Below, piece after piece: positions 3,729 to 55,773 of a stretch of DNA of 64,000 nt. The DNA is from Cenococcum geophilum (lineage: Eukaryota). The notes under the pieces are model-generated. The model saw nothing but the letters and a program-made list of their open reading frames with translations. It did not search any database and was not told where the DNA came from. The translations under genes were made by a program, and so were the position numbers. The stretch covers positions 15,376,001 through 15,440,000 of the forward strand of contig CP158635.1 of assembly GCA_050273025.1 (NCBI GenBank), read 5' to 3'. Every line of letters begins with the position of its first letter. The first letter of the stretch is position 1.

Positions 3729-3794
3729 TTACCTAGTCGTCGCCTACTAAATAGAAGTTGTTAAAGTACTAAAGGCATAGAGGAAGCCTATAAG

Positions 3795-4172
3795 TGTAAG
3801 AGGCCAGCCTAACCGGAACGTATGATTATCTAATTAATAGTGTTACCGGTAAGTAGAAGGTAAGTTAAAGGTAAATAAAAGGTAAGTTAAAGGTAGAATA
3901 AGTTTTATATATTAAAGGATAAATGCTTCTAACTACTTCTATTTAGAGACTAATTGCTGGTTCTTCTCTAGAGGAGAACCAGCTCCCTATATAATCTTTT
4001 TAAGACACTAGTAAAACCCTTTACCCCTTATCTATCTAACTGTGTCTTTTAGAACGTAGATAGAATATAGGTAAGACCTCCTTCTGGAATATAGATAAGA
4101 CCTCCTTCTAAAACATAGATAAGACCTCCTTCTGTCTTATCTAATATATACCTTCTAGGGAATTCCGTTATA
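3795..4172 (-). repeat. 3' LTR (378 bp)
   Basis: TGTAAGAGGCCAGCC...AATTCCGTTATA. Contains three 24-bp GAATATAGATAAGACCTCCTTCT-type internal repeats and matches 13957-14334. Confidence 0.95.
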
Positions 4173-4767
4173 ATTACCTCCCCTTTAAGGGTCTTAGTCC
4201 TCCAAGACTTCACCTTTACTAAGCTTTTATAAAGTTCCGGCTAAAACCACTAGGGAAATTCTTAGTGGAAAGGTACTTTATAATGCGGCTTATAGCTAGT
4301 TCTTTACTAGCGTAGAACCTTACTTTATCCTTAATTCCTCTGCTCTTTTCCTACTATAGTTCCCTATAATACCTTTATAATGGAACTAAAATAATAATAA
4401 TAAAAATTGGATAGGATTTACCTTTCTTATTATAAGAGTTTGTTATAAGTTAATCTAGAGGTTGTCCTATATAACGCGTCTATAAGCTACCATCCCTATT
4501 TACCTAAAATAGATTCTGATAATAACGTTTTTATTTTAATTTTCTTCTAGTTTATAAGCTGTCGCCTCCTACGCGTCTTTTTATTAATAACACCATTCGT
4601 CTCGTCTTTTAGCAGACTGTTTCCTCTATATCTCCGCTTTTAGCTTCCGTATCTCTAGCTATTCTTTTATAGCTGCTTTATTCTCTTCTTATAATACGTC
4701 TATAAGTAATAGGATCCCTACCTTATCTTCTTATAATAATGCTAACTTCTTAGAGTATTCTCTTATA

Positions 4768-6050
4768 ATAGCTCGTGGTCCCCAGACCGGCGGCAGTATT
4801 ATTAATCTCCCGGTGACGCCCTAGACAGCGTCTATTGCTTCTACGGCAGTTTCCCTAAAATACTATTGTTGCTACATTTATACTCTTACGTAGAATCCTT
4901 CCTATGTCTGTAAGATGCCTCGCTCTAGCGAAAATAAATCTAAGTACTTCTATTATCGCAGTAGGAGAAAGACCTGCGTCCTAGTATTTCCTATTCCGTC
5001 CTATTCTAGATTTCGCTAATTATACTAGATCCCCGCTATCTATACGCATAAGACTTATAGGCTCTAATACGCCATCTAAGATTTCCGCCGATATCCTAAT
5101 AGTGACAGGCGGGGACAGAAGGTGTCTTCCCTCGTTTATAGACTCTTTAATTCTATAAGGGTTTCCACTACTATAGAGACGTAACGTTCTTGGATATATA
5201 GTGTCTAGGAGCGTATATGCGAACAGCTCGTCTTTAATAATAATATTTATACTCTTACGCGGGCTACTTTAGCCAGGTGAGTTTCTCTAGTAACTTACTT
5301 AGGAACTATGCTAACTCCTTTAGCTAATATCTCTCTAATCCCTGCTTAGACGCTAATTTAGAACCTAGGGATACTAAGGATAGCAATAAAGGTTAAGATA
5401 AACGTTCTCCTCGCCAGTCTCCCGCCCGTGCTGGTCCTTCTAGTACCCGTTATTCTAAGAAGAATATTAGTAGAAGTGCTAATGCTTCTAGGGATAGAGG
5501 AGCTAATAATACCGTTAATAATAACGTTAAGATAGAAGAGGAGGCTCCTATTACTGTTGCTAATATTTAAGTTATTACCTGGCTCTTTCCTTCTTATAGA
5601 ATAGCTTTATATAGTGCCTCTTAGGTGCCTTTAGGATGCCCTATTATTAGGAATTAACTTTATACTTTGGGGATGCCTTTATTCTAAGCTTTAGTAACAA
5701 TCTATATAAACGTAGTGCACTACTATAATCCCTATATATAATAAACGGGTAGTATTCCTATAGGTGCCTTATAATTCCTTAAAATTTCTAATTCTTTATA
5801 GGCTGTCCTTTTGCTTCTCTTCGTACTATTAACTCTACTGCGTATCTCCGGTGCTAGGCCAAATACTCTCCTTTTATCCCTAGGGGATCTTGCTAAATCC
5901 CTAAGGCCACTTCTTATAGTGCTACTGCTCCTTTTTATACAGCGTCTTCTTTAAATAGTATCCCTAGTAGTTCTTCTATAGATCCTTATAGGCTTCCTCT
6001 TACAGGATTCTAGGATCCCTATTATAATAGTAAAACGTTTCCGTTTTTAA
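4768..6050 (+). pseudogene. Antisense, two-intron accessory gene of the Gypsy element (N-terminal Cys/His-rich motif, acidic and Pro/Ser-rich tail), RIP-inactivated
   Basis: Introns 4984-5028 (GT..GCTAAT..TAG) and 5277-5323 (GTGAGT..GCTAAC..TAG) join three segments in frame. All stops are TAA/TAG. Confidence 0.7.
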
Positions 6051-9000
6051 TGCCTATACTTAATTTTATAGTTTTAATTTGCGGGGTCTTCCCTATTACT
6101 TTACCTGTGGTATATCCGGAACTATTTCTAAGTCTTTACCTTTAGTTCTTAAGAAGGTTTTAATTATAGTATTATATTTTGGCTAAAGGTACTCCTTAGG
6201 TTCCTAACTATTATGCGCCTAGGAGTATCCTTCCTAATAAACTAAAAATTCGCGCTTCTTCTAGCGCCATCTTTGGTCTAAAATGTCTTCTATATTCCAT
6301 TCCAGTTCCCTATTAATTTCGCTAAGTAGGGGCGGTTCTGCACTATCTTTTCTCTAATATAGCTCTAGCAAGGAAACATGAAATATAGGATATATTAGAT
6401 AAGATTTCGGTAATTCTAATTTATAGGCTTGGTTTCCTTTAGTTTTCTTAACTATCTTAAAGGGTCCGAGCTACTGGTAATCCAGCTTCTTCTTAATACG
6501 TTTTATTTGGATATTTTTTATAGACAGTAAGACTTCATCTCCTATCTTGAATTCTTTCGGCATATATTTTTTATTATAGTACCTTTTTTACACGGCCTAG
6601 GCGTCTAGTAAGTGCTTTTTAAGTTCCTCTCTGCGAATTCTTATTTGCTTAATTCTTTTGGACATTACTAGTGCCTCTTTTTTAGGAACGATGTCCTTAA
6701 TATTTTAGGGGTTATTTGCTTTTACCCCAAACAATGCTTTATAAGGGGTTATTTTTATACTACTGTGGATGCTTATATTATATACGTGCTACGCTAGAGC
6801 TAACTACAATGTCTAATTATTCTGTTGATAATTGATATAGTAGCGGAGGTAGTATTCCAATAACGCATTTAGACGCTCTATTTACCCATCTGTTTACAGG
6901 TAGAAGGTAGTGTTTATCCTTTACCGTATTTTTAATAAGAGATAGAATAAAGACTAAAATATACTGTTAAATACGGTGCCTCTGTTAGATATAATTCCCC
7001 TTAGCATGCTAAATGAGAGCCACCGTTCTAAAAATAGGTCTACTAATTCTGCTGCTGTGATCGTTATTATAATAGTAAAGTATTTTAAAAACTTTGTATA
7101 CCTGTTAACGATTACTAGGATAGCGTTAGCAACCTCTCTAGTTCTTATTTTAGTAGGGGGTAAGCCTATAATAAAATCTATTGTTAATTCTAATATAGGT
7201 CCCTATGGAATAGGAAGTACTAATAACTTGCTGTATAGGCGATGCCTAGATATCTGTATTCTTTAGCACGTATTATACCTTAATATATAGTCCTTAACCT
7301 CTTTAGACATTTTGTTCTAAAAGTATTTCCTTTAAACAGCCTTAAGGGTTCTGTTAGTACCGTAGTGACCCCTAAAAGGGTTGTTGTAGAAGACCTTTAG
7401 AATTTCGTCTTAAATCGCTTGGTCCTTTAAGACATATGCAGTACCCTTAAAGCGCAACAAACCCTTTTAGTCTTGCTGCTATAGCTTCTTAGTAACTCTA
7501 GCTAAGTTAGTCTCCACTATATCTTTCTACCTCTCCCTAGAGGCGAAGGCGTCCCTTTATTAAGCTTAAAGAAGAAGATCCGGAAAGGTTTTGTGTAGAT
7601 TACTTACTTCTATTTTACCTACCGCCATTATAGACTTAAGGCGTGGCATAAGACGTTTTAAACTATTAGTGCTAGCAAATTCTCTTACCGTTGTGTAGTA
7701 TGCTATGCTGCAAATAGGTATCTTGCCTATCCCCCTTAGATCTAAGAACTCGTAGCTAATACGCCGTTAAGTTAAAGGTGCCGCGACACCTCTAGTATAT
7801 CCTATAGAATTCTCGCTAATTTTAGGGTACGCTAACTTTGTGATGTCTGCTTGGTCTATAACCTAGTCTATAACTATATCCTACGGCTCTATAATTATGT
7901 TGCTTCGTAGCTATATCGCTAGGACCTCTACCCTATTATAAAATTCTATAGTTCTAGGGAAAGAGTCTTCTTTCTTCCTAAGCAAATTTTGCAATATGGG
8001 GATTATTTCCCCTATACTATCCTAGATCCTCCCTGTCTTATAATCCGGACATCTTAATAACCTATTAGTAGGATTTGTCTTTTCTAGGTGGTACATAATC
8101 TTAAAATTATACTGTAATAGTGCCTTTGCCTATTTAACTTGTTAACTGCTTAACATCTTTATAGTTATAAAGTATTCCAGGTTATTATAGTCTGTAAGGA
8201 CTTTAATAGGATAATTGCTTCCTATATAATAATGTCACTAGTGCTTTATTACTGCGATTATCGTGAGTAGCTCCTAGTTATATATTATGTAACACTACTC
8301 TATAGGGGTTATTTTCCTTAACTAAAACGCTATAGGATGCTATTTTCCGTCTTTTAATTGAGATATAATTGCCCCTAGGGTAAAGCCGGATGCATCCGTT
8401 TTAAGGTATATATATAGCTCCTAGTAGAAGTGTATTAGGATAGGCGCCGATATAAATAAATCCTTTAACTGGTCTATAGCCTGCTTAGCAGCTTCCCTAA
8501 ATATAAAGGGTCTTAACTTCCTGCCATTCTTAAATCCTTTTAGTAGATTGGTAATTGGGAGTATTACTTATAAGTAGTAAACAATAAACGTTTAGTAGAA
8601 GTTTGCCGTGCCTAAGAAAACCTATACTTCTCTAAATATTATAGGGTAGGGCCATTTCCTAATAGCGTCTACCCGACTTTTCTCTATTAACACTTTGTTA
8701 ACGCTAACGATAAAGCCTAAAAAATTAATGCTAGTAGTATAAAACGTATACTTTTTTAGGTTTATATAGAGCTTGTATTCCCATAGTCTTTCTAATACTA
8801 TTTGCACGTGGTATATATATGCTTTATAGTTATTAAAGTAGACTATAATGTTATTAAGGTAGACTATATATATCGTATCTAATAGGCCTAATAATACCTT
8901 ATTAATATAGGCCTGAAATATTGCTAGTGCGTTAGTGAGCCTAAATAGCATTACTAGGTACTTAAAGTGGCCGTACCGTATTTAGAACGCCGTTTTCTAT

Positions 9001-9332
9001 TTATCACCGGCTTTAATCCGGATTTAATAGTATGCATCTTTTAAATCCAATTTTATAAATATCTTCGCACCTAACAGCCTATTAATAAGCTCCCCTATTA
9101 AGGGTAATAGGTAGCAATTCTTTATAGTAATCTTGTTTAGCGCCCGATAGTTAATATAGAGGTAAAGGGTCCTATCCTTCTTGGGTATAAATATAATTGG
9201 CGCCCCTGCTAGGCTTATAGAGGGCTAAATCTATCCTCTTTAAAGATTGTCTACTATATATTAACGTAGTACCGCTAGCTTATTTTCTAATAGGTTATAC
9301 AGCGGTCTAAAAGGAGGTTGTTTATCCCCTAT

Positions 9333-9598
9333 CATCAGGAAATTTTTTTTTGGGCACGTTGTTGCAAACGAAAATCGGGGTCTGCAAAACCTGCGTAAGT
9401 CGCAAATTTGGCAATTTGCGGCGATTTGCAGCAATTTGCTACAAACACATAGGCTACCTATGCACGCGCCTGCCTTATCTATGTGTTTGTAGCAAATTGC
9501 TGCAAATCGCCATAAATTACCAAAATTGCGACTTACGCAGGTTTTGCAGACCCCAATTTTCGCTTGCAACAATATGCCTAAAAAAAAATTTCCTAATG
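9333..9598. repeat. 266-bp foldback (MITE-like palindrome) forming the left end of element A
   Basis: Arms of about 120 bp: 9333-9452 is the near-perfect reverse complement of ~9478-9598, including a second TIR copy (AAAATTTCCTAATG) ending at 9598. Confidence 0.92.
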
Positions 9599-10718
9599 CA
9601 GAGGCTCTGCATGAGGCTCTATATAAAGCTCTGCATGAGGCTTTACATAAAGCTCTGCACGAAGCTCTGCACGAAGCTCTGCACGAAGCTCTGCACGAAG
9701 CTCTACACGAAGCTCTACACGAAGCTCTACACGAAGCTCTACACGAAGCTTTGCACGAGGCTTTACACGAGGCTCTACACAAAGCTCTGCGTACAGAGGC
9801 TCTGCACGAGGCTCTACACGAAGTTCTGCACGAATTCGTGCACGAAGCTCTGCACGAAGCTCTACACGAAGCTCTACACAAAGCTCTACACGAAGCTCTA
9901 CACGAAGCTCTACACGAAGCTTTGCACGAGGCTCTGTACGAAGCTCTACACGAAGCTCTACACGAAGCTTTGCACGATGCTCTACACGAAGCTTTGCACG
10001 ATGCTCTACACGAAGCTTTGCACGATGCTCTACACGAAGCTCTGCGTACAGAGGCTCTACACGAAGCTCTACACGAAGCTCTACACGAAGCTCTGCACGA
10101 AGCTCTGCACGAAGCTTTACACGAAGCTTTGCACGAGGCTCTACACGAGGCTCTACACAAAGCTCTGGGTACAGAGGCTCTGCACGAGGCTCTACACGAA
10201 GCTCTGTACGAAGCTCTGCACGAAGCTCTACACGATGCTCTACACGATGCTCTACACGAAGCTTTGCACGATGCTCTACACGAAGCTCTGCGTACAGAGG
10301 CTCTACACAAAGCTCTACACGAAGCTCTGCACGAAGCTTTACACGAAGCTTTACACGAGGCTCTACACGAGGCTCTACACAAAGCTCTAGGTACAGAGGC
10401 TCTGCACGAGGCTCTACACGAAGCTCTATACGAAGCTCTGCACGAAGCTCTACACAAAGCTCTACACGAAGCTCTACACGAAGCTCTACACGAAGCTCTA
10501 CACGAAGCTCTACGTACAGAGGCTCTGCACGAAGCTCTACACGAAGCTCTGCATAAAGCTCTATATGAAGCTCTACACGAAGCTCTGCATAAAGCTCTAC
10601 GAAGCTCTACACAAAGCTCTACATATAGAGGCTCTGCACGAGGCTCTGCGCGAAGCTCTACACGAGGCTCTGCGCGAAGCTCTGCATACGGAGGCTCTAC
10701 ACGAAGCTCTACACAAAG
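9599..10718. repeat. 12-bp minisatellite (CACGAAGCTCTR)n
   Basis: About 90 units, with periodic 15-bp variants GCTCTGCGTACAGAG / GCTCTGGGTACAGAG. Confidence 0.97.
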
Positions 10719-10888
10719 CCTTTGTGTGTGTGCGCGCGACACACTACTATCGGGTCCCCGCTATATTCCCGATAGCCTCTACACGTGCCTCTGCCAAGTA
10801 TACCCCCTATATACACCTAGGTAGCCACCTCATTTTTTACCCTTCCTTACATCCTCCCTACCTAGGAAGACACCAGAACGACAGCCAG

Positions 10889-11400
10889 CAGACGACCGTC
10901 GCCGGAGCCAGACGACCGTCGCCAGAGCTAGACGATCGTCAGAGCTAGACGACCGTCGTCAGAGCCAGACGACTGTCGCCGGAGCCAGATGACCGTCGCC
11001 AGAGCTGGACGACCGTCGCCGGAGCCAGATGACCGTCGCCAGAGCTAGACGACCGTCAGAGCCAGACGACCGTCGTCAGAGCTAGACGACCGTCGCCGGA
11101 GCCAGATGACCGTCGCCAGAGCTGGACGACCGTCGCCGGAGCCAGATGACCGTCGCCAGAGCTAGACGACCGTCAGAGCTAGACGACCGTCGCCGGAGCC
11201 AGATGACCGTCGCCAGAGCTGGACGACCGTCGTCAGAGCCAGATGACCGTCGCCAGAGCTGGACGACCGTCGTCAGAGCCAGATGACCGTCGCCAGAGCT
11301 AGACGACCGTCAGAGCCAGACGACCGTCGCCGGAGCCAGATGACCGTCGCCAGAGCTAGACGACCGTCGTCATCGCCACACGACCGTCGCCAGAGCCATA
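10889..11400. repeat. 21-bp minisatellite AGACGACCGTCGCCAGAGCYA-type with an internal palindrome
   Basis: About 25 units, some shortened to 18 bp. The core GACGAC-C-GTCGYC is self-complementary. Confidence 0.95.
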
Positions 11401-11475
11401 CGACAACCGTTCGAACGACCAGCCAGCGAACACGATAAACGATTCGATCGATCGATTGAATCAAGGTGACATAGA

Positions 11476-11604
11476 CAGGTAGGCACAGACAGGTAGGCAC
11501 AGATAGGTAGGCATAGACAGACAGACAGGTAGGTAGGTAGGTAGGTAGGTAGGTAGGCAAGCAGGCAGGTAGGCAGGCAGGCAGGCAGGTAGGTAGGTAG
11601 GCAG
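11476..11604. repeat. (AGGT)n/(AGGC)n/(AGAC)n tetranucleotide microsatellite
   Basis: Directly visible run. Confidence 0.9.
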
Positions 11605-13956
11605 ATGATTTAGAGCCTCCGCGAGAGGCTTCCCCTTAACGCCTAAAGTAGATAGCTCTATATTTTATATAGTTATAATATAAATATATTTAAAAGTATA
11701 CTATAGAAATCTATGGAAATATGTGATAATTTGGTTATTATATAATATAATTATAATTTATATAGTTACAATTTGTACAGTTTTTACAATTCGTACAATT
11801 CGTACAATTTGTACAATTTGTATAGTTTTTACAATTCGTATAATTCGTATAATTCGTACAGTTTGCGCACTATTTATTTATAGGGTAGCATTTTACCGCA
11901 ATTTGCTATTAGGTGCTGCAAATTTATTGTAAAACGCGCAAATTGCTGTTAGGGTGCTGTAAACTTGTTGCAAAACGTGCGTTTTGCGCAAATTGCTATC
12001 GACCATATCCACCTGCCGCAACCGTACGGTTTGTGGCAATTTGCCGCAAACCGCAACAACGAGCCCCAAAAAAAATTTCCTGATGATGTCTATTTTATGC
12101 TTAACTAATATAGGGTCGGGTAAGGTTTATACAGCCTCTTTACTAGAAATATCCTCTAAGTCTATATATTTCTGTAAAATCTCTAGTTCCTTAACTACGC
12201 ATAGCCGGATATCCGAAAATGAATATCCCGTGTCCCCATTCTTAGTGTTAAGAGTGGCATATATGGCATATACCCACCCTTCTTCTTATATATGGTTTAA
12301 AAAAGTCTCTTAATCTTTAACTATAATACGTGGTTAAGACTTCCGATGTTAATACAAGGCTAAAGGCCAATTAATGTCCGGATTAACTTGGCAAAGCTAT
12401 AGGTATCCTAAAATAAGGTTATACCCCTTAATTTCTGCGGCATAGAAGCGCATCTCCTATATATCCTATAGACTATCGCGGTCCTAGCTAGCTATGGAAA
12501 AAGCCTGTTCCCTATAGCATAGAATCTAGTAGCCTTTAATGCTTTAAATGGTGCGTACCTATAAGCCGCTAAGGTCTAAATCTAATTCTTTTACTAGTAA
12601 TTAAGAAATAAACCTTATACTCGCGCCGCTATCTATAAGGCAGTCTCGCGTTACCTATTTATTATTAACTTAAATAAAGACAGGAATAACTATATAGCAG
12701 TTTACTTCCTCCTTCTCTTACTAGCCTAGTATAAGGGAGTAAAGATCTACTAGGCTGTCTCTTTTTTTAATTAGGCCGACTCTTACTTCTTCTGCCAATA
12801 GAAGCGGCTTATATGGCCCTTCTTGCCATAGTTATAATAGGTACGTGTCTCCCGGTTCCCCTTCTACGGATTAGGTCTCTACCTATTATTATTTTAGGGT
12901 TAACTAGCGTTGCTCTAGGGCTGTGAGGCCTGCTCGCGTTATCCTTCTGTAGAGTGGTTAGGTCGGAATCTGCCCCTATTATTAAAGCTAGGTCTAGTCC
13001 TACGCTCTTTATTGTTAGCGTCTTGTTCCTTTTACTTACCTAGATGGTCTCTTTTAGCACTCTTAATCCGAGTAGCTTTAGAGATAAGCTTTTCTTAAAA
13101 GGTAGGAATTTCGCCCTTTTCTTATATGGCCTGTTAAATCTTAGGTTGTAGCTTAGTAAGTAGCTAGTGAAGTTATATAGCGTTATCCTATAGATCTAAG
13201 TAGGGTATATTGTCTTCTAGTTCTTCTAAGTAGTTTATAAACTGGACTATAGTCTGACCATCCCGCTATTTGGCGTTATGGTATCGCTGGTTGTAGTTTA
13301 TTTCTTAATTAGTAGGGTCTTGGACCTAATTAACTAACTAGGTCCTAAGTTCGCTAAATTTAAAGGGTATAGTAAGTTTCTTCTTATAGCGTGTCTATGA
13401 ACTCTTAATAGTACTATGTAGAAAGGTAAAAGTAATTAGTGTCTAATTATACTTATTAGAGTAACGTTTTAGATCTAGCCGAAACTTAATTTCGTATTAT
13501 TAGATAAAATAATTGCAGTTCTAAAGACTATTACTATAGTACTTATTAGGTTCCTTTATACGGAATTTAGGTTTTTTTAACGTTATAGCATAGTATAGCG
13601 TTACCCCTTTGAGTCCGCTTCGTGTCTAGGGTGTCTATACTTCCCCTAATTGTCCTTATAATTGTTCTTGGTAGTTTTAATATACTTATCTTAATTATAT
13701 CTCCAACTCCTTTGTTTTTTTATAGGGTCTTATATAGCGACCGCTCTAATAACTCCCTAGCGGTAATTATTTCTAAAGGTCTTATAAGGTTAGACAGACT
13801 AGCCGTAGCTTCTTTATAGGAAGAGGGAATACGCTCCTCTAAGGAGACTCTTTAAGCCTCTTATGGTGAGGGCGTTGCTTTATAGGGTACAGGAGTATAG
13901 TTTGTTATTATTAATTAATAGCCGTACGTTCCTAACGGATTATAAACGATTAGAAT

Positions 13957-14334
13957 TATAAGAGGCTAGCCTAACCAGAATATATAATTATCTAATTAAT
14001 AGTGTCACTGGTAAGTAAAAGGTAAGTTAAAGGTAAATAGAAGGTAAGTTAAAGGTAGAATAAGTTTTATGTATTAAAGGATAAATGCTTTTAACCACTT
14101 CTATTTAGAGACTAATTGCTAATTCTTTTTTAGAGGAGAACTAGCTCCCTATATAATCTTTCTAAGACACTAGTAAAACCCTTTACCCCTTATCTGTCTA
14201 ACTATGTCTTTTAGGACGTAGATAAAATATAGGTAAAACCTCCTTTTAGAATATAGATAAGACCTCCTTTTGGAATATAGATGAGACCTCCTTCTATCTT
14301 ATCTGATATGTACCTTCTAGGGAATTCCGTTATA
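13957..14334 (-). repeat. 5' LTR (378 bp)
   Basis: TATAAGAGGCTAGCC...AATTCCGTTATA. The differences I checked against the other LTR are C/T or G/A transitions. Confidence 0.95.
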
Positions 14335-14726
14335 ATAAGCCTTATATTTATATACTATTTACCTAACCTTTACTATAAGCTTCTTTACCTCCTTCCATCT
14401 ATATATCTAGCACTTTAGTAGGCTTTTATAGCCTTACTTCCTTATAAAGCTTTTAATAGAATGGTAAGTTCGCGTCTTATACCATTAAATTGTAGGCAGT
14501 GGGGTTTTAGCTATAACGTAGGTGGTTTTTTAATTCGTTTTATTTTTATAACCAGGCCCAATACTAGATTAATATTACCTATATTTTAGTAAGTTTTGAC
14601 AAAGAAGACGCTTAGTATCGTGCTTATTTAGGCCTATCTTTTAACTGCCTATAATAATAAGGTTCTATTATCGGGAAAATATTCGCAGGATGAGATTTAA
14701 GTAGACTTTAGTTTTCGCGTTTCGCG

Positions 14727-15122
14727 TAATTAATATATAATTTAACTAACTCGATACGCAATTAACTAACTTAACACGCAATTAACCAACTTAATATATA
14801 ATTTAACTAACTTAATATATAGTTAACCTACTTAATATACAATTTAACTAACTTAATACGCAGTTGACCTACTTAATATATAATTTAACTAACTTAATAC
14901 GCAGTTAACCTACTTAATATACAATTTAACTAACTTAACACGCAGTTAACCTACTTAATATGCAATTTAACTAACTTAATACGCAGTTAACCTACTTAAT
15001 ATACAATTTAACTAACTTAATACGCAGTTAACCTACTTAATATATAATTTAACTAACTTAATACGTAATTAACCTACTTAATATATAATTTAACTAACTT
15101 AATATGTAGTTAACCTACTTAA
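14727..15122. repeat. 21-bp minisatellite with an alternating 42-bp higher-order unit
   Basis: CAATTTAACTAACTTAATACG alternating with CAGTTAACCTACTTAATATA. Confidence 0.9.
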
Positions 15123-15263
15123 TAACTTTAAAAGCTAACTATATATTTCTTAACGTGCGATTAAAGTAAAGTTATATACTATATATTTAACTATTATATA
15201 TAATCCTATATAATCTTATATAATCTTATACAATCTTATATAATCTTATAGTCTTATTACTTA

Positions 15264-15727: not shown

Positions 15728-15860
15728 TCGGGTCCCCGCTATATTCCTAATAGCCTCTACACATGCCTCTACCCTATATAACTACCTTATTTTTTACCCT
15801 TTCTTCCTTCTTTATATCCTCCCTACTTAGGGAGGCACTAGAACGGCAGCTAGTAGAGAA

Positions 15861-17000
15861 CCGTTGCTAGAACTAGATAACCGTCACTAGAACTAGATAA
15901 CCGTTACTAAAACTAGATAACTATCGCCAGCTAGACGACTGTTACTAGAACTAGATGACTATTACTAGAACTAGACGACTGTTGCTAACTAAATAACCGT
16001 TACTAGAACTAAATAACCGTTACTAGAGCTAGACGACCGTCGCCAGAACTAGATAACCGTTGTTAGCGCTAGATAACCGTCGCTAGAACCAGACGACCGT
16101 CGCTAGCTAGACGACCGTTACTAGAACTAGACGACCGTTGCTAAAGCCAGACAACCGTCGCCAGAACTAGACGACCGTCGCTAGAACTAGACGACTATTA
16201 TTAGCCAGATAACTGTTACTAGAACCAGACGACCGTTACTAGAGCCAGACGACTGTCACCAGAACTAGACGACCGTTGCTAGCGCTAGACGACCGTCGCC
16301 AGAACTAGACGACCGTCGCTAGCTAGACGACCATTACCAGAACCAGACGATTGTTGCCAAAGCTAGACGACCGTCGCCAGAACTAGATAACCGTTGCCAG
16401 CGCTAGACGACCGTCGCCAGAACTAGACGACCGTCGCTAGCTAGACGACTGTTACCAGAACCAGACAACTGTTGCTAGAGCTAGATGACCGTCGCTAGAA
16501 CTAGACGGCCGTCGCCAGAACCAGACGACCGTTGCTAGAACTAGACGACTGTTGCTAGCTAGACGACCGTTACCAGAACCAGATAACCGTTGCCAGAGCC
16601 AGACGACCGTCGCCAGAACTAGACGACCATTACCAGCGCTAGATAACCGTTGCTAGAACTAGACGACCGTCGCTAGCTAGACGACCGTTACTAGAACCAG
16701 ACGACCGTTGCTAGAGCTAGACGACCGTCGCTAGAACTAGACGACTGTTACTAGCGCTAGACGACTATTGCTAGAACTAAACGACCGTCGCTAGCTAGAC
16801 GACCGTTACTAGAACTAGATAACCATTACTAGAGCTAGATAACCGTCGCCAGAACCAGACGGCCGTCGCTAGAACTAGACGACCGTCGCCAGAACTAGAC
16901 GACCGTTACTAGAACTAGACAACTATTGCTAGCCAGACGACTATTACTAGAACTAGATAACCGTTGCTAGAACTAAACAACTGTCGCTAGAGCTAGACGA
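15861..17000. repeat. RIP-mutated, longer copy of the 21-bp GACGACCGTCG minisatellite
   Basis: AGACGACCGTCGCCAGAACT units interspersed with 17-bp variants. Confidence 0.92.
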
Positions 17001-17063
17001 TAATAACTAGCTAGCTAACACTATAAACGATTTAATTAATTAATTAAATTAAGGTAGCATAAA

Positions 17064-17525
17064 CAGGTAGGTATAAATAGGTAGATGCTAATAGGTAGGT
17101 AGATATAGATAGGTAGGTAGATATAGATAGGTAAGTAGATATAAATAGGCAGGTAGATATAGATAGGTAAGTAGATGTAGATAGGCAAGTAGATATAGAT
17201 AGGTAGGTAGATATTAATGGATAAGTAAATATAAATAGGTAGGTAGATATAAATAAGTAGATATAAACAAGTAGGTAGATATAGATAGGTAAGTAGATAT
17301 AGATAGGTAAGTAGATATAGATAGGTAAGTAGATATAGATAGGTAAGTAGATATAGATAGGTAAGCAGATATAGATAGGTAGGTAAATGTTAACGAGTAG
17401 GTAAATATAGATAGGTAAGTAGATATAAATAGGTAGGTAAATGTAAACAGGTAGATATAGATAGGTAGGCGATGTAGATAGGTAGGTAGATATAAATAGG
17501 TAGGCGATATAGGTAGGTAGGTAAG
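17064..17525. repeat. 16-bp repeat (AGGTAAGTAGATATAG-type) derived from an AGGT microsatellite
   Basis: Directly visible, in the same position relative to the 21-bp array as 11476-11604. Confidence 0.85.
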
Positions 17526-21871: not shown

Positions 21872-24205
21872 TCAACCAAACCCATGGCCATTAGGGGCGC
21901 TAGGATTAACATTTTCAAGTTCAAAGCTCTGCAAAAGACTCTCCCATTGAGCCCAATTCATCTGGTCAGGCTCTAAGGGCGGTAGGTTGGTTATGTAAGA
22001 GGGATCAAGGTCGTTTCCAAGATCAAGGCTGGAAGAGAAGTCCTCATCCCATTCGAGAGGATCCAGAGCAGGTTGAAATTCCACGGAGGGGATTTCAGAA
22101 GAGACGTCGACATTCAGTGTTGATGCGGATACTGGGACCTGAGCTGATCGTCTACCTCCAATCCTCTGAGAACGTAACACTGAGATGAAGTGAGGTGTTT
22201 CGCTGCCAGGTATCCCGCGACTTGTCACAAAAGCTTCCCATGCTTTGATTGCCAAGTTGCCAACCGCAACCGGCAGAGCACGCTTTGAGTCCGCGATGAA
22301 ATCGGGGTGACGCTCGTAGACCATCTGGACTTGCTGCCAGCCCAGCTCAGCGTCTTCTCCGCTTGTTCGGTAGCGTAGCTCGTTTAGGATATATATGAAC
22401 GCTTTCCATTGGAAGTGCATGTTGACATGCCAAGCGAATCCTTGAGTTCCTTTGATGATGAACGCCATATTCTGGTACGAAATGACCTTCACACAATTAT
22501 CAAACAGCAGGTCTTTCTCCTTTTGAGGCATACTTGCTCCTTTGTCCTCATACTGATCGGGGTTGTGGGCAATAAATCTCATTGTGCAAATGACGGCCCT
22601 GGAGAGGTACGCGGCCATCAAATGGGAAGGTATTGATTCGTCACAATAATTTAGGAACTTGCGTTTCAGGAGGTCTTCGAATTCATCGATGGCCTTATCT
22701 TTATTAGCAATTGGAACACCGGATTGGCTTAATCGACTCCAGGTACCATCATATGCGTTGTTGGGGCTAGAGCGCCGAAGAAAGTCGCCCACATGGCATC
22801 TGATTAAAAAGAACATCATTTCCGTAGGTCCGTCGTGTTCCTTGGGTGGATCTCGCATATCAGGATTCAGTTCGCTATCATTGACATTTAATGGAATTTG
22901 GACATCACCAAGCACAAACATTCTTCCTACACCGGCAAGCTTTTCGGCGTAAGCATCAATTAAATTGATTTGCCACCAGAGTCGTCGTCGCATTTCGGCC
23001 TCAAATACAGACAGACCGAGAGCTGATCCGTCACGGTGAAGACCGGATCTCTGTCCAATTCGAGTAGCGACTCCTGTCAAGACCCAGAGGGATCGCGCAT
23101 CGTAGTCCTTGAGAGAAAGCTGGTGGATTGCATTATCAGTCATGTCCTTAGGCAAAGAAGTCGAGCGAATAAGGTGAACTAGAGTAAAGAACCAGCTATA
23201 TGTCGTTCGCAAAGCTTTGTATATACTGAAGGTGTTTCAGATGTCGACGGGAAAACTTACAAGAAGTAACACCAGGGCCTGAAGGACCATCATGTCAGAG
23301 GACTTAAGAAAGCTTGCGTTAATTAAAGCTTGCTGACAGCCAGAACGAAACCTTCGTAAGACTGTGGATTTTCCTTCACCCATGATGGCATCACACTCTG
23401 CATCACTCAACGATACCAGTACACAACAGTATATTCCAAACATCAGTGCTTCCAAGTTTTTAGGCACATTTTCTAGACTTCCGGTTGCGTTAAGAATGAG
23501 CTGTTGTGTAGTGGGAGTATGAAAGATTTTGACAAGAGGGTTGACATTATCCAAATAGGTTTGCCAGAGCTTGAAGATCTGTACTGGTCGAGGATGAAGG
23601 CAATGAATATCGCTACTGGAACGTGGAGTACCGAACAGAAGATCGCTAGGCTCAGAAGGCATTTCGGGAGTCGATCTATAGTCTCTCTCTGCCTCTCCCT
23701 CATCAGAGGAATCCTGAAGTATTTTATAGTTGTCTCGAAATTCGCTGCTGATACTCGTCCAAAGGTGGTTTTCAAGATACCTTGACTTTCCTTCTTCGGC
23801 AAAGAGCATACCAGAATCCACGCCAGGTATCGTCCCAAAATGTTCTCGAGAGTCTTCTGAACCTTTCCGTTCGAAAGTTCCGGCAGCGGAATGCTCGCCC
23901 ACGTCGGCAGGGTTCACGCCTAGCTTCTTCAGAGCCTCTTCATACAGCCGGAGCTTTGTATTTATGTCCATCTCCGGCCCCCGTCTTTTCCTGCGCCTGG
24001 GTGGCGCAGGTGGTCGGTATATACATTCGACGCGAGATTTGGTACAACTAGAACATCCTCCGGGGTTCTTATCGCATCGGACTTTCCGTTGTGCGCATAG
24101 GACACAGGAGTAGCTTTTTTGGATCTGGGCCGCCGAGCTATTTGGTGCTGAGGGCGACGGTGCAGCGCCAGGCAAGATTGTTGGCGAGAGTTCGGAGGCA
24201 GCCAT
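21872..24205 (-). CDS. Zn(II)2Cys6 fungal transcription factor with middle homology region; exons 24205-23261 and 23119-21872
   Basis: SCVLCAQRKVRCDKNPGGCSSCTKSRVECIY binuclear cluster. GLHRDG..LGLSVFEAEMRRRLWW is the Fungal_trans motif. GTAAGT..CAG intron. Confidence 0.95.
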
Positions 24206-25089
24206 TGCCTGGATCTCTTCGTGAAGCGCTTCTTTCGTGGAGGGAGGTCAATAGAGCGCGAAATAGAGGATTTATGGATCTAGTTTGAGTCAGATGGTAG
24301 GTAGCCACGTTCAATGCAAGGGATCAATAGTAGATTAGCATGAACATCCTGGGTATCGGACAGGGATGAGTAAGCTATACAAAATAAAAGGGATAGGGCC
24401 ATCACAGATCCGCATCTTGCTCCTTTCTTGGGCTGCTCTATCTTCAGGATTGTAATAATATCCTCGATCGTTATTTGGAATCGCTAATGCACAAGATTGA
24501 TATCTTTGCAGGATGGGTTGCTTTACTCATCCCCACAGGTGGCTGACAACAAAACGTTGAGCGACCCCGCTGTGGCACTGCACAAGTTCGCCTGTATTTC
24601 TCTGCCACCCCTCTCGCTGGTAACGGCATGAAATTTTAAGTACGACCCTAAAGTGAGACACTCCCTAAAGAGTATTTGAAATATCCAAACTATTGAGAAT
24701 TGATGCAGGTACTCGATTTGTATTTTGGCTATTCATCGCTGCAGGACTAGCTCTTTCATAATTCCACGCTCTCGCACCGAAAATCTCAAACCGAATAACT
24801 GGCAGTATTTACTAATACATACCTTCGTGTATTTTTGTTGCTTAGCGGGCGAGTTAGGAAATCATAGCGTTCCAAGTAAAATGAAGTTCACTTCGCAACT
24901 TTATTCTTACATTCAAATCTTCCGCACGAAAAATCAGAGCGTAATGAATCTATTAAATTAGCTCGAAATAAGATCCGACGAACTGCCCTGCCAACAAAGA
25001 TATATGAAGCCTCTTTCAAACCCCACTCTTCAGCGTCTTCGGCTACAACTCAAACCTCCCAAATCACAGCAAACATCTATGCTGCAAAA

Positions 25090-30700: not shown

Positions 30701-33700
30701 GGTATAATCCTCATGCGCATCCGATTACGGCCTTCTGTCTCGTCCAAACGCCACTTCAACTGCGTGTCGCCTTCGAATAATCCACAAGGTCTCCGCAGGG
30801 CTCTATCAAGCTGCACGATTGTAGATGATATGAATGAAAGGTTATCTTGCTGATCTTGCAAAGCACGTTGGTGTTTGAGACGCTCCGAAGCATGCACATT
30901 AGCTCTCCAATGCGTAGTCTGAACCTCGTGTCTCTGCCAGGTAGCATCGCTTATGGATTCTTCACTCTGCCACTGTTTTAACTTCTCCTTGCGTCTTGCG
31001 GCTCTGTTCTTTAGGGTCTCCTCGGTCTTGCGATTCTGGTCCACCACAAATTCCTCCCAGGTTCTGGACATGGCTCCAAAAAAGAACGCGTTCAAGTCGG
31101 CTTGGTATTTGTCGATCCAGGTGAGAAAAGTTTCGTTGTCTAGTTCCATCAATTTGTGAAAGCCTCTTGATAGGTATTTTTGATTCACGTTGATAGCATG
31201 GTTAAGGATTGCGGACGTGTCATCAGGTTTTTGAACGAGCAATAACCGCCAAAAGTTGGCTGCTGATAATCGTACTGGCTGATCGTTGCTGACTAATTTG
31301 GTATAGAGAAGGTAGCAAATCAGTTTCAGGAAGAGACCTTCGTTGTTTTCGGATGACAGTATGATTGTCTGCCAATATATCATCTTGTCGATGAACGCGA
31401 CGGTTTCTGATCCTTGTTCAGATGTGTCTAACTCTGAGAGCTGTAACAGCGCTACTCGAAGAAAAACGGATCGAATAGTAGCAGTGGCCTGAGTGCAGAG
31501 GCGCACGCTCTTTATTTGAGCAATATCCGGACGTTGTAAGTATTCAAGTAGTGTACCTGTGAAGTCCAGAAATGGCTCAGCTCCATTCAAGAACCACCCT
31601 TCAAAGACTGCTTCTGCGAGATGCGTGACATATCGGGCGAGATTGGTGAGAACTCTTGGTTCATGGAGGAGCTTCTGGTTGAGTTGGATAGTGTTCGAAA
31701 CCGTGGACATGGCGTGGCGGAGAATATATGATTCGAAATATGCTTGATGCTCTTGAAATCCAGGTGGAGTTTTTAGAAATAGACCAAGCCCAGGGAAATC
31801 TTTCCGTTGAAACAGCTGATCTATAAACACACCAATCACAACTTCGAGGAGTCCTTCAACCACAGTACTACCAATTTTCAAAGCCACCGGCGCACCATTC
31901 CTTGGTGATATTATAGGATTCAAGGGAGGGGTGGGTTTTGAGTTGTCGAATTTCTCTGCGGAAATAAGAATAAAAGTCGACCCGCGTCGCAGGGGTATCG
32001 CCTGTTGTGTTGCTAGACTTGGTGGTGATTCCATGGTTGTCTTGCGAACGATTGGAGCTTGCTGATTTGCTGATTTACTGAGAGGCTGGATAACCACATC
32101 TTGGCCTTCAAACGTTAAAGCAGAGCCTCTAGACAGTAGCTCTGTCTCTGCGCTAACACTATCAGAGGTGACGATAACCGGATAGAGAACAAATAATAAC
32201 TCTTGCACATAATTAGAAGAATTTGCGTAGTCCCGAAAAGCTTGAGATCTCGCATGCACATCGGTAAGGAATTGAATAGCTACATTAAGCACTGCGGCAT
32301 AGTTGTCGAGTCGATCAGCTTGTGGATTTTGGGAATCTAGAAGAATTAGCAAAATCAAACCGCGATGAAAATTGATGACCGACCTGAGAAAAACTGCTTA
32401 GCACTTAAAGACATAGTTCGTTGCCTGCCGCGGATTGTAGGAGTTAAATCGGATGATGGTGGTTCATTGAATTCCATTTGCTGTGGCTCGTTGAGGGATG
32501 CCGCACTGGCCTGATCCTTCACAATTGCACGCAACCCTGTTTCAAGCATTGCAGTGATAACTGGAAAGACTTCCGGATAAACCACTTTAACTCTGGGATT
32601 ATTGGTGAAAAGGTCTGTAAGATTAAAGAGATCGAAGTCACGTTCAAAGTCGATACTGGCAGCGTCACGGTCGAAGAGAATTGCGAAGCAAATTGTCCAT
32701 ATCCCTGGAGTGTTCCACCAAGATTTAAGTCTGTGTTTCATTATCGTGAAGCCGCCGCTTTTTTCTGCAAATTTTTTCACGTAGCTTGGCCCGTTGACGA
32801 CAAGTAGACGAGCAAGTATCTTTGCACCCAGGACTACCACACGAGGATCGGTTTCAGCAAGTAAATAAAGAAGCCACTAGTAATTAAGTCAGCAAAAACT
32901 AACACACAATCAAGTAAGTAACTCGTACTTTGCTCGTCACATTTTTGGCAAATCGCTGAATGTCGGTGATATTAGCTTCATCACACAACAGTTCCGCCAG
33001 CATATTGAGAATTGCCACACCCAAATCTGCAAGTGAGAGACCAGGTGCTATGTTGGGATCAATGATGGGGCTTGCCGAACGCGGCGTCGAGCCGGGAGTT
33101 GTAGATAGAGGAGCAGCTCTGCTTCGGAGCCGCATGACGCTACTCTTCGAACGTAGTGTTCGCTTTGCGAAGGTACGACTATCATGAAGTGCATACGTGA
33201 CAAATAGAGCCAAAAACCGCGCCGTTTCTCCCGACATATTGCACCGCACAAGGACTTTGAAAGCTTCAAGAAAGTACGGAAATACATCTGCAGAGAATGA
33301 CTCTCCCTTCAATGCATCCATAAGCCGCTTGACAACCCCTATAGGAATGTTAGTCCGCCTACAAGAGAATGACTCGCTCACTCACGCATTCTAATCAGTC
33401 GCTTTGCGTTGTAGTGGTGATGTTTGCTGCCCCGAGCAAAATTGACGAATTGACCGTAGTATAGTTTCTGTGTCTCCACAGACAATGTCCTCCTCCATAT
33501 TTCAAGATCGACGAGAAGGACTCTGTACGCTAATGGATTAATGATGAGAGACTCTGTTGGATTTTCTTCATCATATCCGATGAAACGCAAAATAACTCTG
33601 AGCAAGCTAAACACGAAAGACTCGCGCTCATCGGTCGTCATGTTAATCTCAGAATACTTTTGTCCAGCAGAAGCAATTGCTGAGCCAAGGCCCAATTTTT

Positions 33701-53736: not shown

Positions 53737-55413
53737 TCAGCCCTCCAAACCCGCCCCTTCTAAACCTTCTACCTCTCCTTCCACCAACTCCCCCAAAAAC
53801 CCCTCTTCCCCCTCCACAGTCCGATGAAACCCGCCCCCAACCCCATCACTCACCCAGCAGACTCCCAACGCACACTCGATCCGCCGCAACCGCCACGCCC
53901 ATAGCGCTAGCAGCGCCTCCTCCATCTCGCGCGTCCAGGCGGGAGCGAGATCTGGGTGCTGCACCAGTCTGTTCTGCAGGCCGCGCGGGAGAGAGGTGAA
54001 AGGGACGCCGCTTTGGGCAAAGACGCGCCAGGCGAGGGCGGGAGAACCGGCGCGGAGGAGGGCGTGGATGAAGACTGCGGGGGCGTGGAGAGGGTGCCGG
54101 TGTTCTATTTCTGGTCCTGGTTCCGCTTCCGCTGCTCCGACTTCCGCTGCTTCGACTTCGACTTCCGCTTCTGCTTCCGCCTCCGTTTCCGCCGCCATCG
54201 TCCCCCTTTCCCCCTCCGGCATGCCGCCACCAGCCCCCCGCTTCCCTCCTCGCCCAACCCACCCCTCCCATTCTCTCCACACCCCTTCCGCATCCCCGAG
54301 CCTCCCGAGCGCCCGCACCCACGCGCCCAGATACCACCAATCCGCCCGCCTCCCCTCCATCCAAAGCCCCAAATGCCACGGCTCCCCCCCGGCCCCTTCC
54401 ACCCCCTCAACCCCAACCACCGCCCTGACCCACTCCCCCCTCATTCCCCCCTCCCCTCCCTCGCATCCCGCTTCTTCCGCCTCCGCCGCGACCGCCCGCT
54501 CCGCGACCGCCCGAACCACCTCCCCGAACAGCCGCGGCGGCAGCGCTGCCCGCCGCGCCCGCAGCGCCACGAGGTGTCTCCGCAGCGCCGAAAGCGTGGG
54601 CCTCGGCGCCGCTGCCGCCATGTGCAGCCCCGCGTACAGCAGCGGCGTCGGGGGCGGTATGTCGCTAGCGCGGAAGCGCGTCAGGAGCGCTGTCAGGAGG
54701 GCGGGTAGGCGGGTGTCGGCGGGGTGGGCGCGGTGCAGGTGGAGGAGGGCGCTGGATAGGGGGCCGGCGAGGGAGGGGGAGGCGAGTGCGGTGGTGAGGC
54801 GGGGGTCGGAGAGTGCGGTGGTGGTGAGGCGCTGGAGGGAGGCGGGGGAGGTGGCGAGGGGCAGTTGGGTGAGGAGGGTGTGCTGGAGGGTTAGGTCGGC
54901 GAGGCGGGTTGGGCCGGGGGTTGGGGGCTGGGAGGAGAGGAGCTGGCGCGCCGTAGTGGAGAGGGCGGCGGTGGTTATGGCGTCGCTTTGCCGTCGGGAT
55001 TGTGCGACGATTTTGGGGGTGCGGTGCCGGTGCCCTGCGGTGGGGGGAAGGATTGCGGTGCGCAATTCGTCCGTGAGGCTGAAGAGGTTGAGTTGTCGGT
55101 TTAGAGCGTCTCGAAAATCCGGCGGGATGTCGTTGATTTCGGGGGTTTCTTTGGCTGGCTTGCTGGAAACACGAAAGCGTCTATCATCCTGATTTCGAGC
55201 GTTAGGTATGGTGCTATTCTGGCGCCAAGTATGAGGTTGTTTCCCACTCTCCCTGAGAGCATAAGATGGTCTCTCATCCTTACTGCCGCTGTCGGATGCG
55301 TTGTGGGTTGAGAGGGTACGGAGGATTGTCTGTCGCCCACGGGGGGGTTGGCGGGCTATCGAGGGAGCATATTTGCACAGGACGCACACGGAACGAATAG
55401 AGCCCAATGGCAT
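53737..55413 (-). CDS. Hypothetical 558-aa protein, probably mitochondrial and helical-repeat-like
   Basis: Single long ORF. The N-terminus MPLGSIRSVCVLCKY..RTLST resembles a mitochondrial targeting peptide. YLGAWVRALGRLGDAEGVWREW is PPR-like. Divergent from SYF2. Confidence 0.65.
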   Translation of the reverse strand: MPLGSIRSVCVLCKYAPSIARQPPRGRQTILRTLSTHNASDSGSKDERPSYALRESGKQPHTWRQNSTIPNARNQDDRRFRVSSKPAKETPEINDIPPDFRDALNRQLNLFSLTDELRTAILPPTAGHRHRTPKIVAQSRRQSDAITTAALSTTARQLLSSQPPTPGPTRLADLTLQHTLLTQLPLATSPASLQRLTTTALSDPRLTTALASPSLAGPLSSALLHLHRAHPADTRLPALLTALLTRFRASDIPPPTPLLYAGLHMAAAAPRPTLSALRRHLVALRARRAALPPRLFGEVVRAVAERAVAAEAEEAGCEGGEGGMRGEWVRAVVGVEGVEGAGGEPWHLGLWMEGRRADWWYLGAWVRALGRLGDAEGVWREWEGWVGRGGKRGAGGGMPEGERGTMAAETEAEAEAEVEVEAAEVGAAEAEPGPEIEHRHPLHAPAVFIHALLRAGSPALAWRVFAQSGVPFTSLPRGLQNRLVQHPDLAPAWTREMEEALLALWAWRLRRIECALGVCWVSDGVGGGFHRTVEGEEGFLGELVEGEVEGLEGAGLEG

Positions 55414-55773
55414 TGATGGTGTAAGACTGTGTCCAGCTTTCCTAGTTGGGTGTGGTTATGATTTTGGAGACTGCACAGTAGTGTGGCCGAAGCTTCGAGA
55501 AAATAAGAGTGCTGGCAGGCAGCCCAATTGCTAATGCTGGTATCGGGAAGAGCTGTATATTGAAGCTCTAAGTTGGCTTCAATTTCAAATATTGCTGAAT
55601 AATGAGAGGCTGGCAATGCCTTTGCCTCTTGAGCCGTCGATGCCGTCCAAAGAATTGGTATTGTGGCTTGGTGTTGAGGCTTGGTGTTGCGGCTCTGCGA
55701 AAAAGTTGGCGCTAGCGGCCGTCTCGACCTTTTCCTCCGACATCATCACCACAATTAACACTTTAACACCAGA

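Follow-up and report, generated by a model that had tools for sequence, protein, structure and literature searches.

Relic of a probable twice-spliced antisense accessory gene between pol and the 3' long terminal repeat of a degraded chromovirus from Cenococcum geophilum

What occupies the roughly 1.9 kb that separate pol from the 3' long terminal repeat (LTR) of a Ty3/Gypsy retrotransposon in the fungus Cenococcum geophilum? The element lies in the window analyzed here, a stretch of 64,000 nucleotides of contig CP158635.1 (assembly GCA_050273025.1, positions 15,376,001 to 15,440,000), and has been degraded by repeat-induced point mutation (RIP). A first-pass annotation, made from the letters of the window alone, had proposed that the interval holds an accessory gene, read opposite to gag-pol and interrupted by two short introns, whose product partly resembles a zinc-cluster transcription factor. 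Comparison with other copies of the element indicates that this observation was largely right: the interval probably preserves what was once a genuine accessory gene of the element, antisense and spliced but now extinct, albeit with a shorter open reading frame (ORF) than had been claimed and with a cysteine-rich region whose membership of the zinc-cluster family is not borne out.

The identity of the element itself is clear. Direct repeats of 386 nt and 90.7% identity at 3789-4174 (3' LTR) and 13951-14336 (5' LTR) delimit a minus-strand LTR element. Although RIP-degraded, its pol frame (read through from 6066 to 9338, minus strand) recovers the Pfam domains RVT_1, RT_RNaseH, RT_RNaseH_2, Integrase_H2C2 and SH3_Tf2-1, representing reverse transcriptase, RNase H, integrase and SH3 modules. 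The accompanying chromodomain gives only a weak Chromo match (20 bits, under the Pfam cut-off of 25.1), and the element is assigned to the chromoviruses because PF00385 is present in nearly all of the 120 pol homologues listed (two rows being without it) among the 513 found at E<=1e-10. It is thus a RIP-degraded Ty3/Gypsy chromovirus in minus-strand orientation, as the first-pass annotation had described it. A putative polypurine tract, read from the letters as AAAGGGGAGG on the minus strand, occupies 4177-4190 and adjoins the 3' LTR, while the pol stop codon lies at 6066-6068; the extra sequence of about 1.9 kb reported between these two points is therefore real. The first 21 kb of the window, in which the element lies, are AT-rich and bear a RIP signature. 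Between 4200 and 6050 the TpA/ApT ratio is 1.62 and the (CpA+TpG)/(ApC+GpT) ratio 0.48, as against 0.67 and 1.31, respectively, in the gene-rich part of the window.

The interval is furthermore a constant part of the family. A RIP-tolerant motif of 30 letters taken from it recovered 61 loci in metagenome contigs; collinearity of the region extends to the 3' LTR at 42 of them, to pol at 44 and to both at 31. Given this collinearity across loci the 1.9 kb belong to the family and do not represent a private insertion; an origin as a nested foreign insertion was rejected on the same ground, and the accessory region is integral to the family. The 9433 aligned pieces of DNA run X1 point to a highly repeated family. 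In this run the depth over the accessory region equals that over pol, the 3' LTR is the deepest-covered part of the family, and the differences are nearly all transitions (transitions at 559 variable places, transversions at 15). The alignment on which the following analyses are based comprises the window copy and 44 near-full-length metagenome copies, 45 in all; the 44 are RIP-degraded without exception, with a GC fraction of 0.29-0.39. Within this family one set of copies (L005, L019, L020, L032, L033, L052, L054 and partly L002) is set apart from the rest by in-frame indels of 12 nt and 6 nt in exon 1 of the gene model described below and by about 20 fixed transversions, and it is these lineage differences that make a test of selection possible. 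In viral contigs the motif of the region had 0 matches, and the pol of a relative 0 confirmed matches.

Taken alone, the raw window is no proof of a gene, since stop counts do not single out a frame: the three frames of the first-pass annotation contain 2 stops in 72 codons, 4 in 82 and 13 in 242, and some other frames are as good. An earlier state of the sequence was reconstructed by restoring C or G wherever at least 2 of the 45 copies retain C or G, a rule which recovers the earlier base because RIP changes solely C to T and G to A. This de-RIP consensus opens all three exons of a plus-strand gene model save for a single internal stop at 5077-5079, a codon that reads Gln in one copy, Trp in another and TAG rather than TAA in 6. 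Exon 1 (4768..4983), which codes for a Cys/His-rich basic region, would begin at an ATG at 4768, placed after de-RIP in the context ACAATGGC; the G of this codon is retained in 26 of the 45 copies, and the window reads ATA. Intron 1 (4984..5028, 45 nt) separates it from exon 2 (5029..5276), coding for a further basic region and a heptad-spaced amphipathic helix that might form a coiled coil. Beyond intron 2 (5277..5323, 47 nt), exon 3 (5324..5570) codes for an acidic Ser/Pro/Gly-rich tail and ends in a TAA at 5568-5570 that is unchanged in all 45 copies.

The coding sequence (CDS) of the consensus thus comprises 241 codons and a stop, and that of the window copy 236, with deletions of 12 nt and 3 nt. 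The frame of about 395 codons that had been proposed, reaching to 6050 and ending tail-to-tail with pol, is cut short by the invariant TAA. Its extension is filled with stops: downstream of 5570 all plus-strand frames keep 6-8 stops even after de-RIP, the earlier-proposed one having 7 in about 160 codons. The stop codons of the accessory gene and of pol consequently lie about 495 nt apart, and the stops, the codon model and the indels alike mark 5571..6065 as a non-coding spacer between the two genes. On the other side, codon scores, indels and transversions delimit a second non-coding spacer at 4191..4767, upstream of the gene on the plus strand, which presumably held its promoter and 5' untranslated region; shared transversions are densest here (33 in 593 nt). 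Of the poly(A) signals AATAAA and ATTAAA neither occurs 3' of the stop in the consensus, where two conserved TATA-type hexamers were seen. The window copy of the gene is dead, its start codon being gone and its frame interrupted by 8 premature stops in all: exon 1 has the ATA start, 2 premature stops and the 12-nt in-frame deletion, and exon 2 has 4 premature stops and the 3-nt deletion. Every copy seen, that of the window included, has been destroyed by RIP.

If these three exons once formed one message, the two intervening stretches should behave as introns. Spliceosomal introns of filamentous fungi typically extend from GT to AG over about 45-70 nt, with a CTRAY branch site near the 3' end. 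Both stretches fit this pattern and lie exactly where the first-pass annotation had placed them, reading GTATTT..GCTAAT..TAG at 4984-5028 and GTGAGT..TGCTAAC..TTTAG at 5277-5323; the second is fully canonical, whereas the first is weak at its 5' site. In intron 2 positions +1, +2, +4, +5 and +6 (GT, A, G, T) are retained without exception in the 45 copies, at +3 there is G in 6 and A in 39, both of which are canonical (hence GTRAGT), and the 3' AG is retained in 43 copies, together with a TGCTAAC branch site. The composite of its signals (GTGAGT, CTAAC, TAG) has 2 matches on both strands of the 64 kb, compared with 0.31 expected from shuffled sequence. The other match, at 33339-33385 on the minus strand, is probably a genuine host intron because it lies at the edge of an ORF with an Arm_4 domain. 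Intron 1 keeps its GT in 44-45 of the 45 copies and contains an in-frame TAA that is invariant in all of them, so that this stop is no product of RIP and splicing would be needed to read exons 2 and 3. Taken together, the splice signals of intron 2 are retained in 43-45 of 45 copies; the motif of intron 1 occurs at the chance level.

The case for coding is carried by three tests that do not depend on RIP. Two of them count changes common to at least three copies, indels in the one and transversions, which RIP does not make, in the other. The two shared indels within the CDS (12 nt and 6 nt) are both in frame, as opposed to none of the seven outside it, each of which is 1 or 2 nt long (Fisher P=0.028 for the contrast); five of these fall in 4191-4767, all out of frame, and two, each of 1 nt, in 5571-6065. 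Among the 25 shared transversions in the CDS 11 are synonymous in the model frame, where 20.5% are expected (P=0.0068); in the other five frames only 3-6 of the 25 are synonymous (P at least 0.44). The excess is distributed over exons 1, 2 and 3 (4/10, 4/8 and 3/7, respectively), which supports both introns, since the phase changes before exon 3 and genuine stops lie within intron 1. Applied to pol as a positive control, the procedure found 15 of 23 shared transversions to be synonymous (P=3.5e-7). From the counts, the ratio of nonsynonymous to synonymous change is roughly estimated at about 0.3 in the accessory gene, compared with about 0.1 in pol. The third test, a codon model, points in the same direction. 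Trained on nine Pfam-confirmed host ORFs in the window, whose true frames score 0.04-0.20 bits/codon when left out one at a time, it gives the spliced CDS +0.103 bits/codon, inside the range of host genes. In all three exons it ranks the model frame first of six, with +0.326 bits/codon in exon 3, while the flanks 4191-4767 and 5571-6065 are negative in all six frames. These patterns argue that the plus-strand frame was held under purifying selection while the family diversified. The comparison of copies therefore favors the antisense two-intron gene of the first-pass annotation; in the de-RIP consensus, which it had suggested as a check, the Cys residues are restored, the splice sites are kept between copies and synonymous changes are in excess.

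Several observations nevertheless weigh against the existence of such a gene. The de-RIP rule, with its threshold of two copies, may over-restore, and 43 of the 44 additional copies come from one metagenome, as judged by contig names, and hence probably from one genome. Openness is unspecific, three other frames of the spliced sequence having just 2-4 stops after de-RIP, and a codon model trained on de-RIPped pol gives the model frame -0.129 bits/codon, no better than the others. The 5' site of intron 1, GTATTT, is weak, and its motif has 3 matches compared with 0.94 expected, which is not above chance. A minus-strand ORF of 178 codons runs across intron 2 and has its own share of synonymous transversions (7/17). 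In RNA run X21 the depth over 4285-5337 is 0 and splice joints are absent; its 48 reads, 44 of them only partly on the stretch, include none that spans the introns, a silence that does not decide the matter because RIP-dead copies are expected to be silent. Homology searches were equally unproductive. Pfam found nothing in the six read-through frames of 4201-6104, and in the 41 copies searched singly it returned three spurious families and no real one; a PDB sequence profile search gave 0 matches at E<=10. Against 1.84 billion representatives a profile built from exons 1-2 had 6 matches, of which five, all short, are fragments of the RIP type from this very family; the sixth (P0008), of 1784 residues and in 10 stretches, has a low-complexity look and was not examined. 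A word-indexed search with this profile found 1 fragment, and the ESM Atlas gave no usable match to an exon 1 that, in another copy, is free of stops by nature. Because the profile itself is RIP-degraded, such searches may fail to detect distant relatives.

The near-open alternative frames, the neutral verdict of the pol-trained codon model, the chance-level motif of intron 1 and the lack of any detected homologue, Pfam family or RNA would all suit an interval that never coded for protein, namely a long 3' untranslated or regulatory region in which ORF, intron motifs and Cys pattern are by-products of de-RIP and the choice of frame. This appears unlikely, as the synonymous excess is confined to the model frame, in-frame indels are found solely inside the CDS, the host codon model selects the model frame in three exons out of three, the signal of intron 2 is both canonical and conserved, and the ATG, the terminal stop and the stops within the introns all behave as the gene model predicts. 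Alternatively, the true extra gene might be the 178-codon ORF of the sense strand (approximately 5590 to 5066), an env-type ORF3 expressed from a spliced subgenomic RNA, of which the plus-strand frame would be the shadow. In the de-RIP consensus it indeed stays open through intron 2, and its synonymous transversions are in excess (P=0.04). However, it lacks an ATG until about codon 130, scores -0.023 bits/codon under the host codon model against +0.103 for the plus-strand model, leaves uncovered exon 1, where the in-frame indels and 4/10 synonymous changes fall, and has the Arg/Ser/Leu-rich composition that in our judgement is usual for out-of-frame readings. A shadow signal of the same kind is present in the frame antisense to pol (9/23 synonymous, P=0.023). 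Since the wobble positions of exon 2 are common to the plus-strand frame, the signal of the sense-strand ORF is read as such a shadow, and we hold it to be very improbable that this ORF is the gene.

There remains the origin of the frame. Its codon usage is nearer to that of host genes than to that of pol, its introns are of the host type and the GC content of its CDS after de-RIP is 57.5%, compared with 47.6% for pol, all of which would be in keeping with a host gene fragment captured in antisense by the ancestor of the family. That it was carried thereafter as a passenger without a role for the element is nonetheless quite improbable: neither profile nor word-indexed searches found a host paralogue or other homologue, a full ORF with start, stop and both introns was retained, purifying selection appears to have acted between element lineages, and the region is present in nearly all copies. 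Even a captured gene could moreover have come to serve the element later on. The favored explanation of the interval thus remains an accessory gene that belonged to the element and was transcribed in antisense and spliced.

What kind of protein might this antisense gene have specified? The consensus has a short Ala/Pro/Gly-rich N-terminus, followed at residues 35-90 by a basic region (15 Lys+Arg, pI 10.4) that contains the Cys and His residues. Each of these is retained in 2-25 of the 45 copies: C36 in 25, C37 in 8, C40 in 16, H42 in 2, H50 in 24, C52 in 6, C64 in 20, H66 in 4, C67 in 16, C74 in 9, H81 in 3 and C86 in 3. Where they are lost the position reads Tyr, as RIP predicts. The pattern that the first-pass annotation had deduced by reversing RIP in the single copy (K-C-x2-C, H-x-C and K-C-x2-C-x6-C-V-P, joined to I-P across the intron) was in this way recovered from other copies. 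Residues 91-160 are likewise basic and have towards their C-terminal end a hydrophobic 4-3-4-3 repeat, a possible coiled coil. The stretch 161-241 has an acidic pI of 4.5 and abounds in Ser, Pro, Gly, Ala and Thr, so that the acidic, Ser/Pro/Gly-rich tail described earlier is upheld by the comparison of copies.

This organization recalls the Zn(II)2Cys6 regulators of the Gal4 type (PF00172), in that six Cys form two triads in a basic stretch, after which come a heptad-spaced helix and an acidic tail, both of which are part of the architecture of Gal4 itself. The canonical spacing of the Zn(II)2Cys6 cluster is C-x2-C-x6-C-x5-12-C-x2-C-x6-8-C, a pattern that matches four of four real Zn_clus proteins. 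The six Cys of the consensus, at 37, 40, 52, 64, 67 and 74, give C-x2-C-x11-C-x11-C-x2-C-x6-C and depart from it in the loop of the first triad, which is too long, with 11 residues here and 6 in Zn(II)2Cys6. A host Zn2Cys6 regulator (Zn_clus + Fungal_trans) is encoded just past the RIPped block, at 21875-24247 on the minus strand, and served as a comparison. Its second triad alone aligns, with C-x2-C-x6-C followed by Val-Pro in both proteins, and the hhalign probability is 0.07%. A local Zn_clus profile built from four sequences scored the de-RIP consensus at 4.5 bits, rank 6 of 501, with 5 of 500 shuffles doing better. Neither PF00172 nor DUF3716 (PF12511) matched any of 41 RIP-degraded copies at E<=5, most Cys having become Tyr in any single copy. 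The likeness to Zn2Cys6 that had been claimed thus holds for the second triad, while the spacing is non-canonical and membership of the family unsupported; the profile search suggested for the Cys-rich domain found no known family. On composition and architecture a zinc-binding nuclear regulator can be proposed only tentatively.

With these qualifications the following scenario may be outlined. The 1.9-kb region would be the relic of the element's own accessory gene, read opposite to gag-pol and transcribed from a promoter of its own within the spacer of about 590 nt that adjoins the 3' LTR. The transcript would be spliced twice and give rise to a zinc-binding, probably nuclear and nucleic-acid-binding protein, which might modulate the expression or the silencing of the element. 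The introns would persist through retrotransposition because the genomic RNA that is reverse-transcribed corresponds to the opposite strand, where the two stretches do not act as introns. This explanation, already offered by the first-pass annotation, is sound as general logic.

Such a layout is not new, as antisense genes at the same position have been published both for a fungal chromovirus and for plant elements. In Boty, a chromovirus of Botrytis and Sclerotinia, the antisense gene brtn lies between pol and the 3' LTR, according to the accessible parts of four papers (PMC7264820, PMC8365987, PMC4227169, PMC5987419), two of which (PMC7264820, PMC8365987) cite Zhao et al. 2011 (Virology 417:248) for its first description. 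Our literature searches found brtn of Boty as the sole published antisense gene of this kind among fungal chromoviruses. As far as those parts describe it, Boty shares with the present family the type of element and an extra gene on the opposite strand between pol and the 3' LTR that is found family-wide; it differs in having intact, expressed copies, whereas the copies here are all RIP-dead. The RIP-degraded profile of exons 1-2 matched nothing outside its own family; the BRTN sequence itself was not compared. Among plant Ty3/Gypsy elements, antisense ORFs between pol and the 3' LTR are listed in the accessible text of PMC7264820 for maize Grande (gene23), rice RIRE2, Silene Retand (ORF4) and Phaseolus PvRetro13 (ORF2), and that of Grande is there stated to have a demonstrated promoter of its own. 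So far as these descriptions go, the plant ORFs agree with the gene reported here in position and orientation, in their presence in most copies of a family and in a suspected nuclear or regulatory role, but occur in plant hosts and in non-chromovirus lineages such as Retand. Their proteins, as described there, are unrelated (SMC-like, transposase_28-like or orphan), in contrast to the two spliceosomal introns and the Cys/His-rich basic domain found here. Three features of such antisense additional ORFs (aORF-3R) are seen at this locus: the gene (4768-5570) is flanked by the pol stop (6066-6068) on one side and the polypurine tract (4177-4190) on the other, it is on the plus strand and pol on the minus strand, and its conservation is family-wide (42/61, 44/61 and 31/61 loci) and gene-like (11/25 synonymous transversions vs 15/23 in pol).

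Beyond retrotransposons of this type, a functional analogue may be seen in HBZ of HTLV-1, a bZIP regulator whose spliced antisense transcript originates in the 3' LTR. The likeness lies in a spliced mRNA, antisense to the element's other genes, that arises near the 3' LTR and specifies a small nuclear protein of transcription-factor type, a function that is conjectural in the present case. HBZ differs in its bZIP DNA-binding domain and in belonging to an animal retrovirus, and there is no homology between the two. Small Cys-rich proteins of unknown function are also encoded in other fungal mobile elements, such as the DUF3716 (PF12511) proteins REP9-1 and REP9-2 within the IS3EU DNA transposon of Zymoseptoria tritici, as described in the accessible portion of PMC8232023. 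It is conceivable, if rather doubtful, that the present gene is a now extinct representative of a class, widespread but so far barely described, in which fungal chromoviruses carry beside the 3' LTR their own spliced antisense gene for a zinc-binding, coiled-coil, DNA-binding regulator, a counterpart of HBZ controlling the element or nearby host genes.

Should the protein prove to be a nucleic-acid-binding regulator, there would be fungal Gypsy elements with a third gene that tunes their expression or evades silencing, and a handle would be gained on the orphan Cys-rich domains that recur in fungal mobile elements. A gene of this kind escapes standard transposon annotation, since it runs antisense, is interrupted by introns and has usually been obliterated by RIP. 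For the window alone the consequence is modest, as this copy is a fossil and its layout has already been published for Boty and plant elements.

The remainder of the element and its surroundings contain several further features. The 5' internal part (12091..13950, minus strand), assigned to the gag and protease region by its position between the insertion described next and the 5' LTR, had no Pfam match in three frames. The element is split by a foreign insertion of about 2.75 kb (9339..12090), which breaks the reverse transcriptase region. Its long inverted foldback ends start with CAGGAAATTTTTTTTTGGGC, and its interior consists of tandem arrays of 12-nt and 20-nt units and (AGGT)n. A distant segment at 53740-55455 has a GC fraction of 0.725 and long overlapping ORFs of 572, 454 and 265 codons, which occupy both strands and lack any Pfam match. 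Tandem arrays are also present in the RIPped DNA that flanks the element, at 2175-2345 and 14680-15212, with a 9-nt unit (ATATTGCGG-like) and a 41-nt unit. The GC fraction of the insertion, 0.49-0.53, marks it as un-RIPped despite its RIPped surroundings, and a repeat block partly similar to it lies at 15806-17500.

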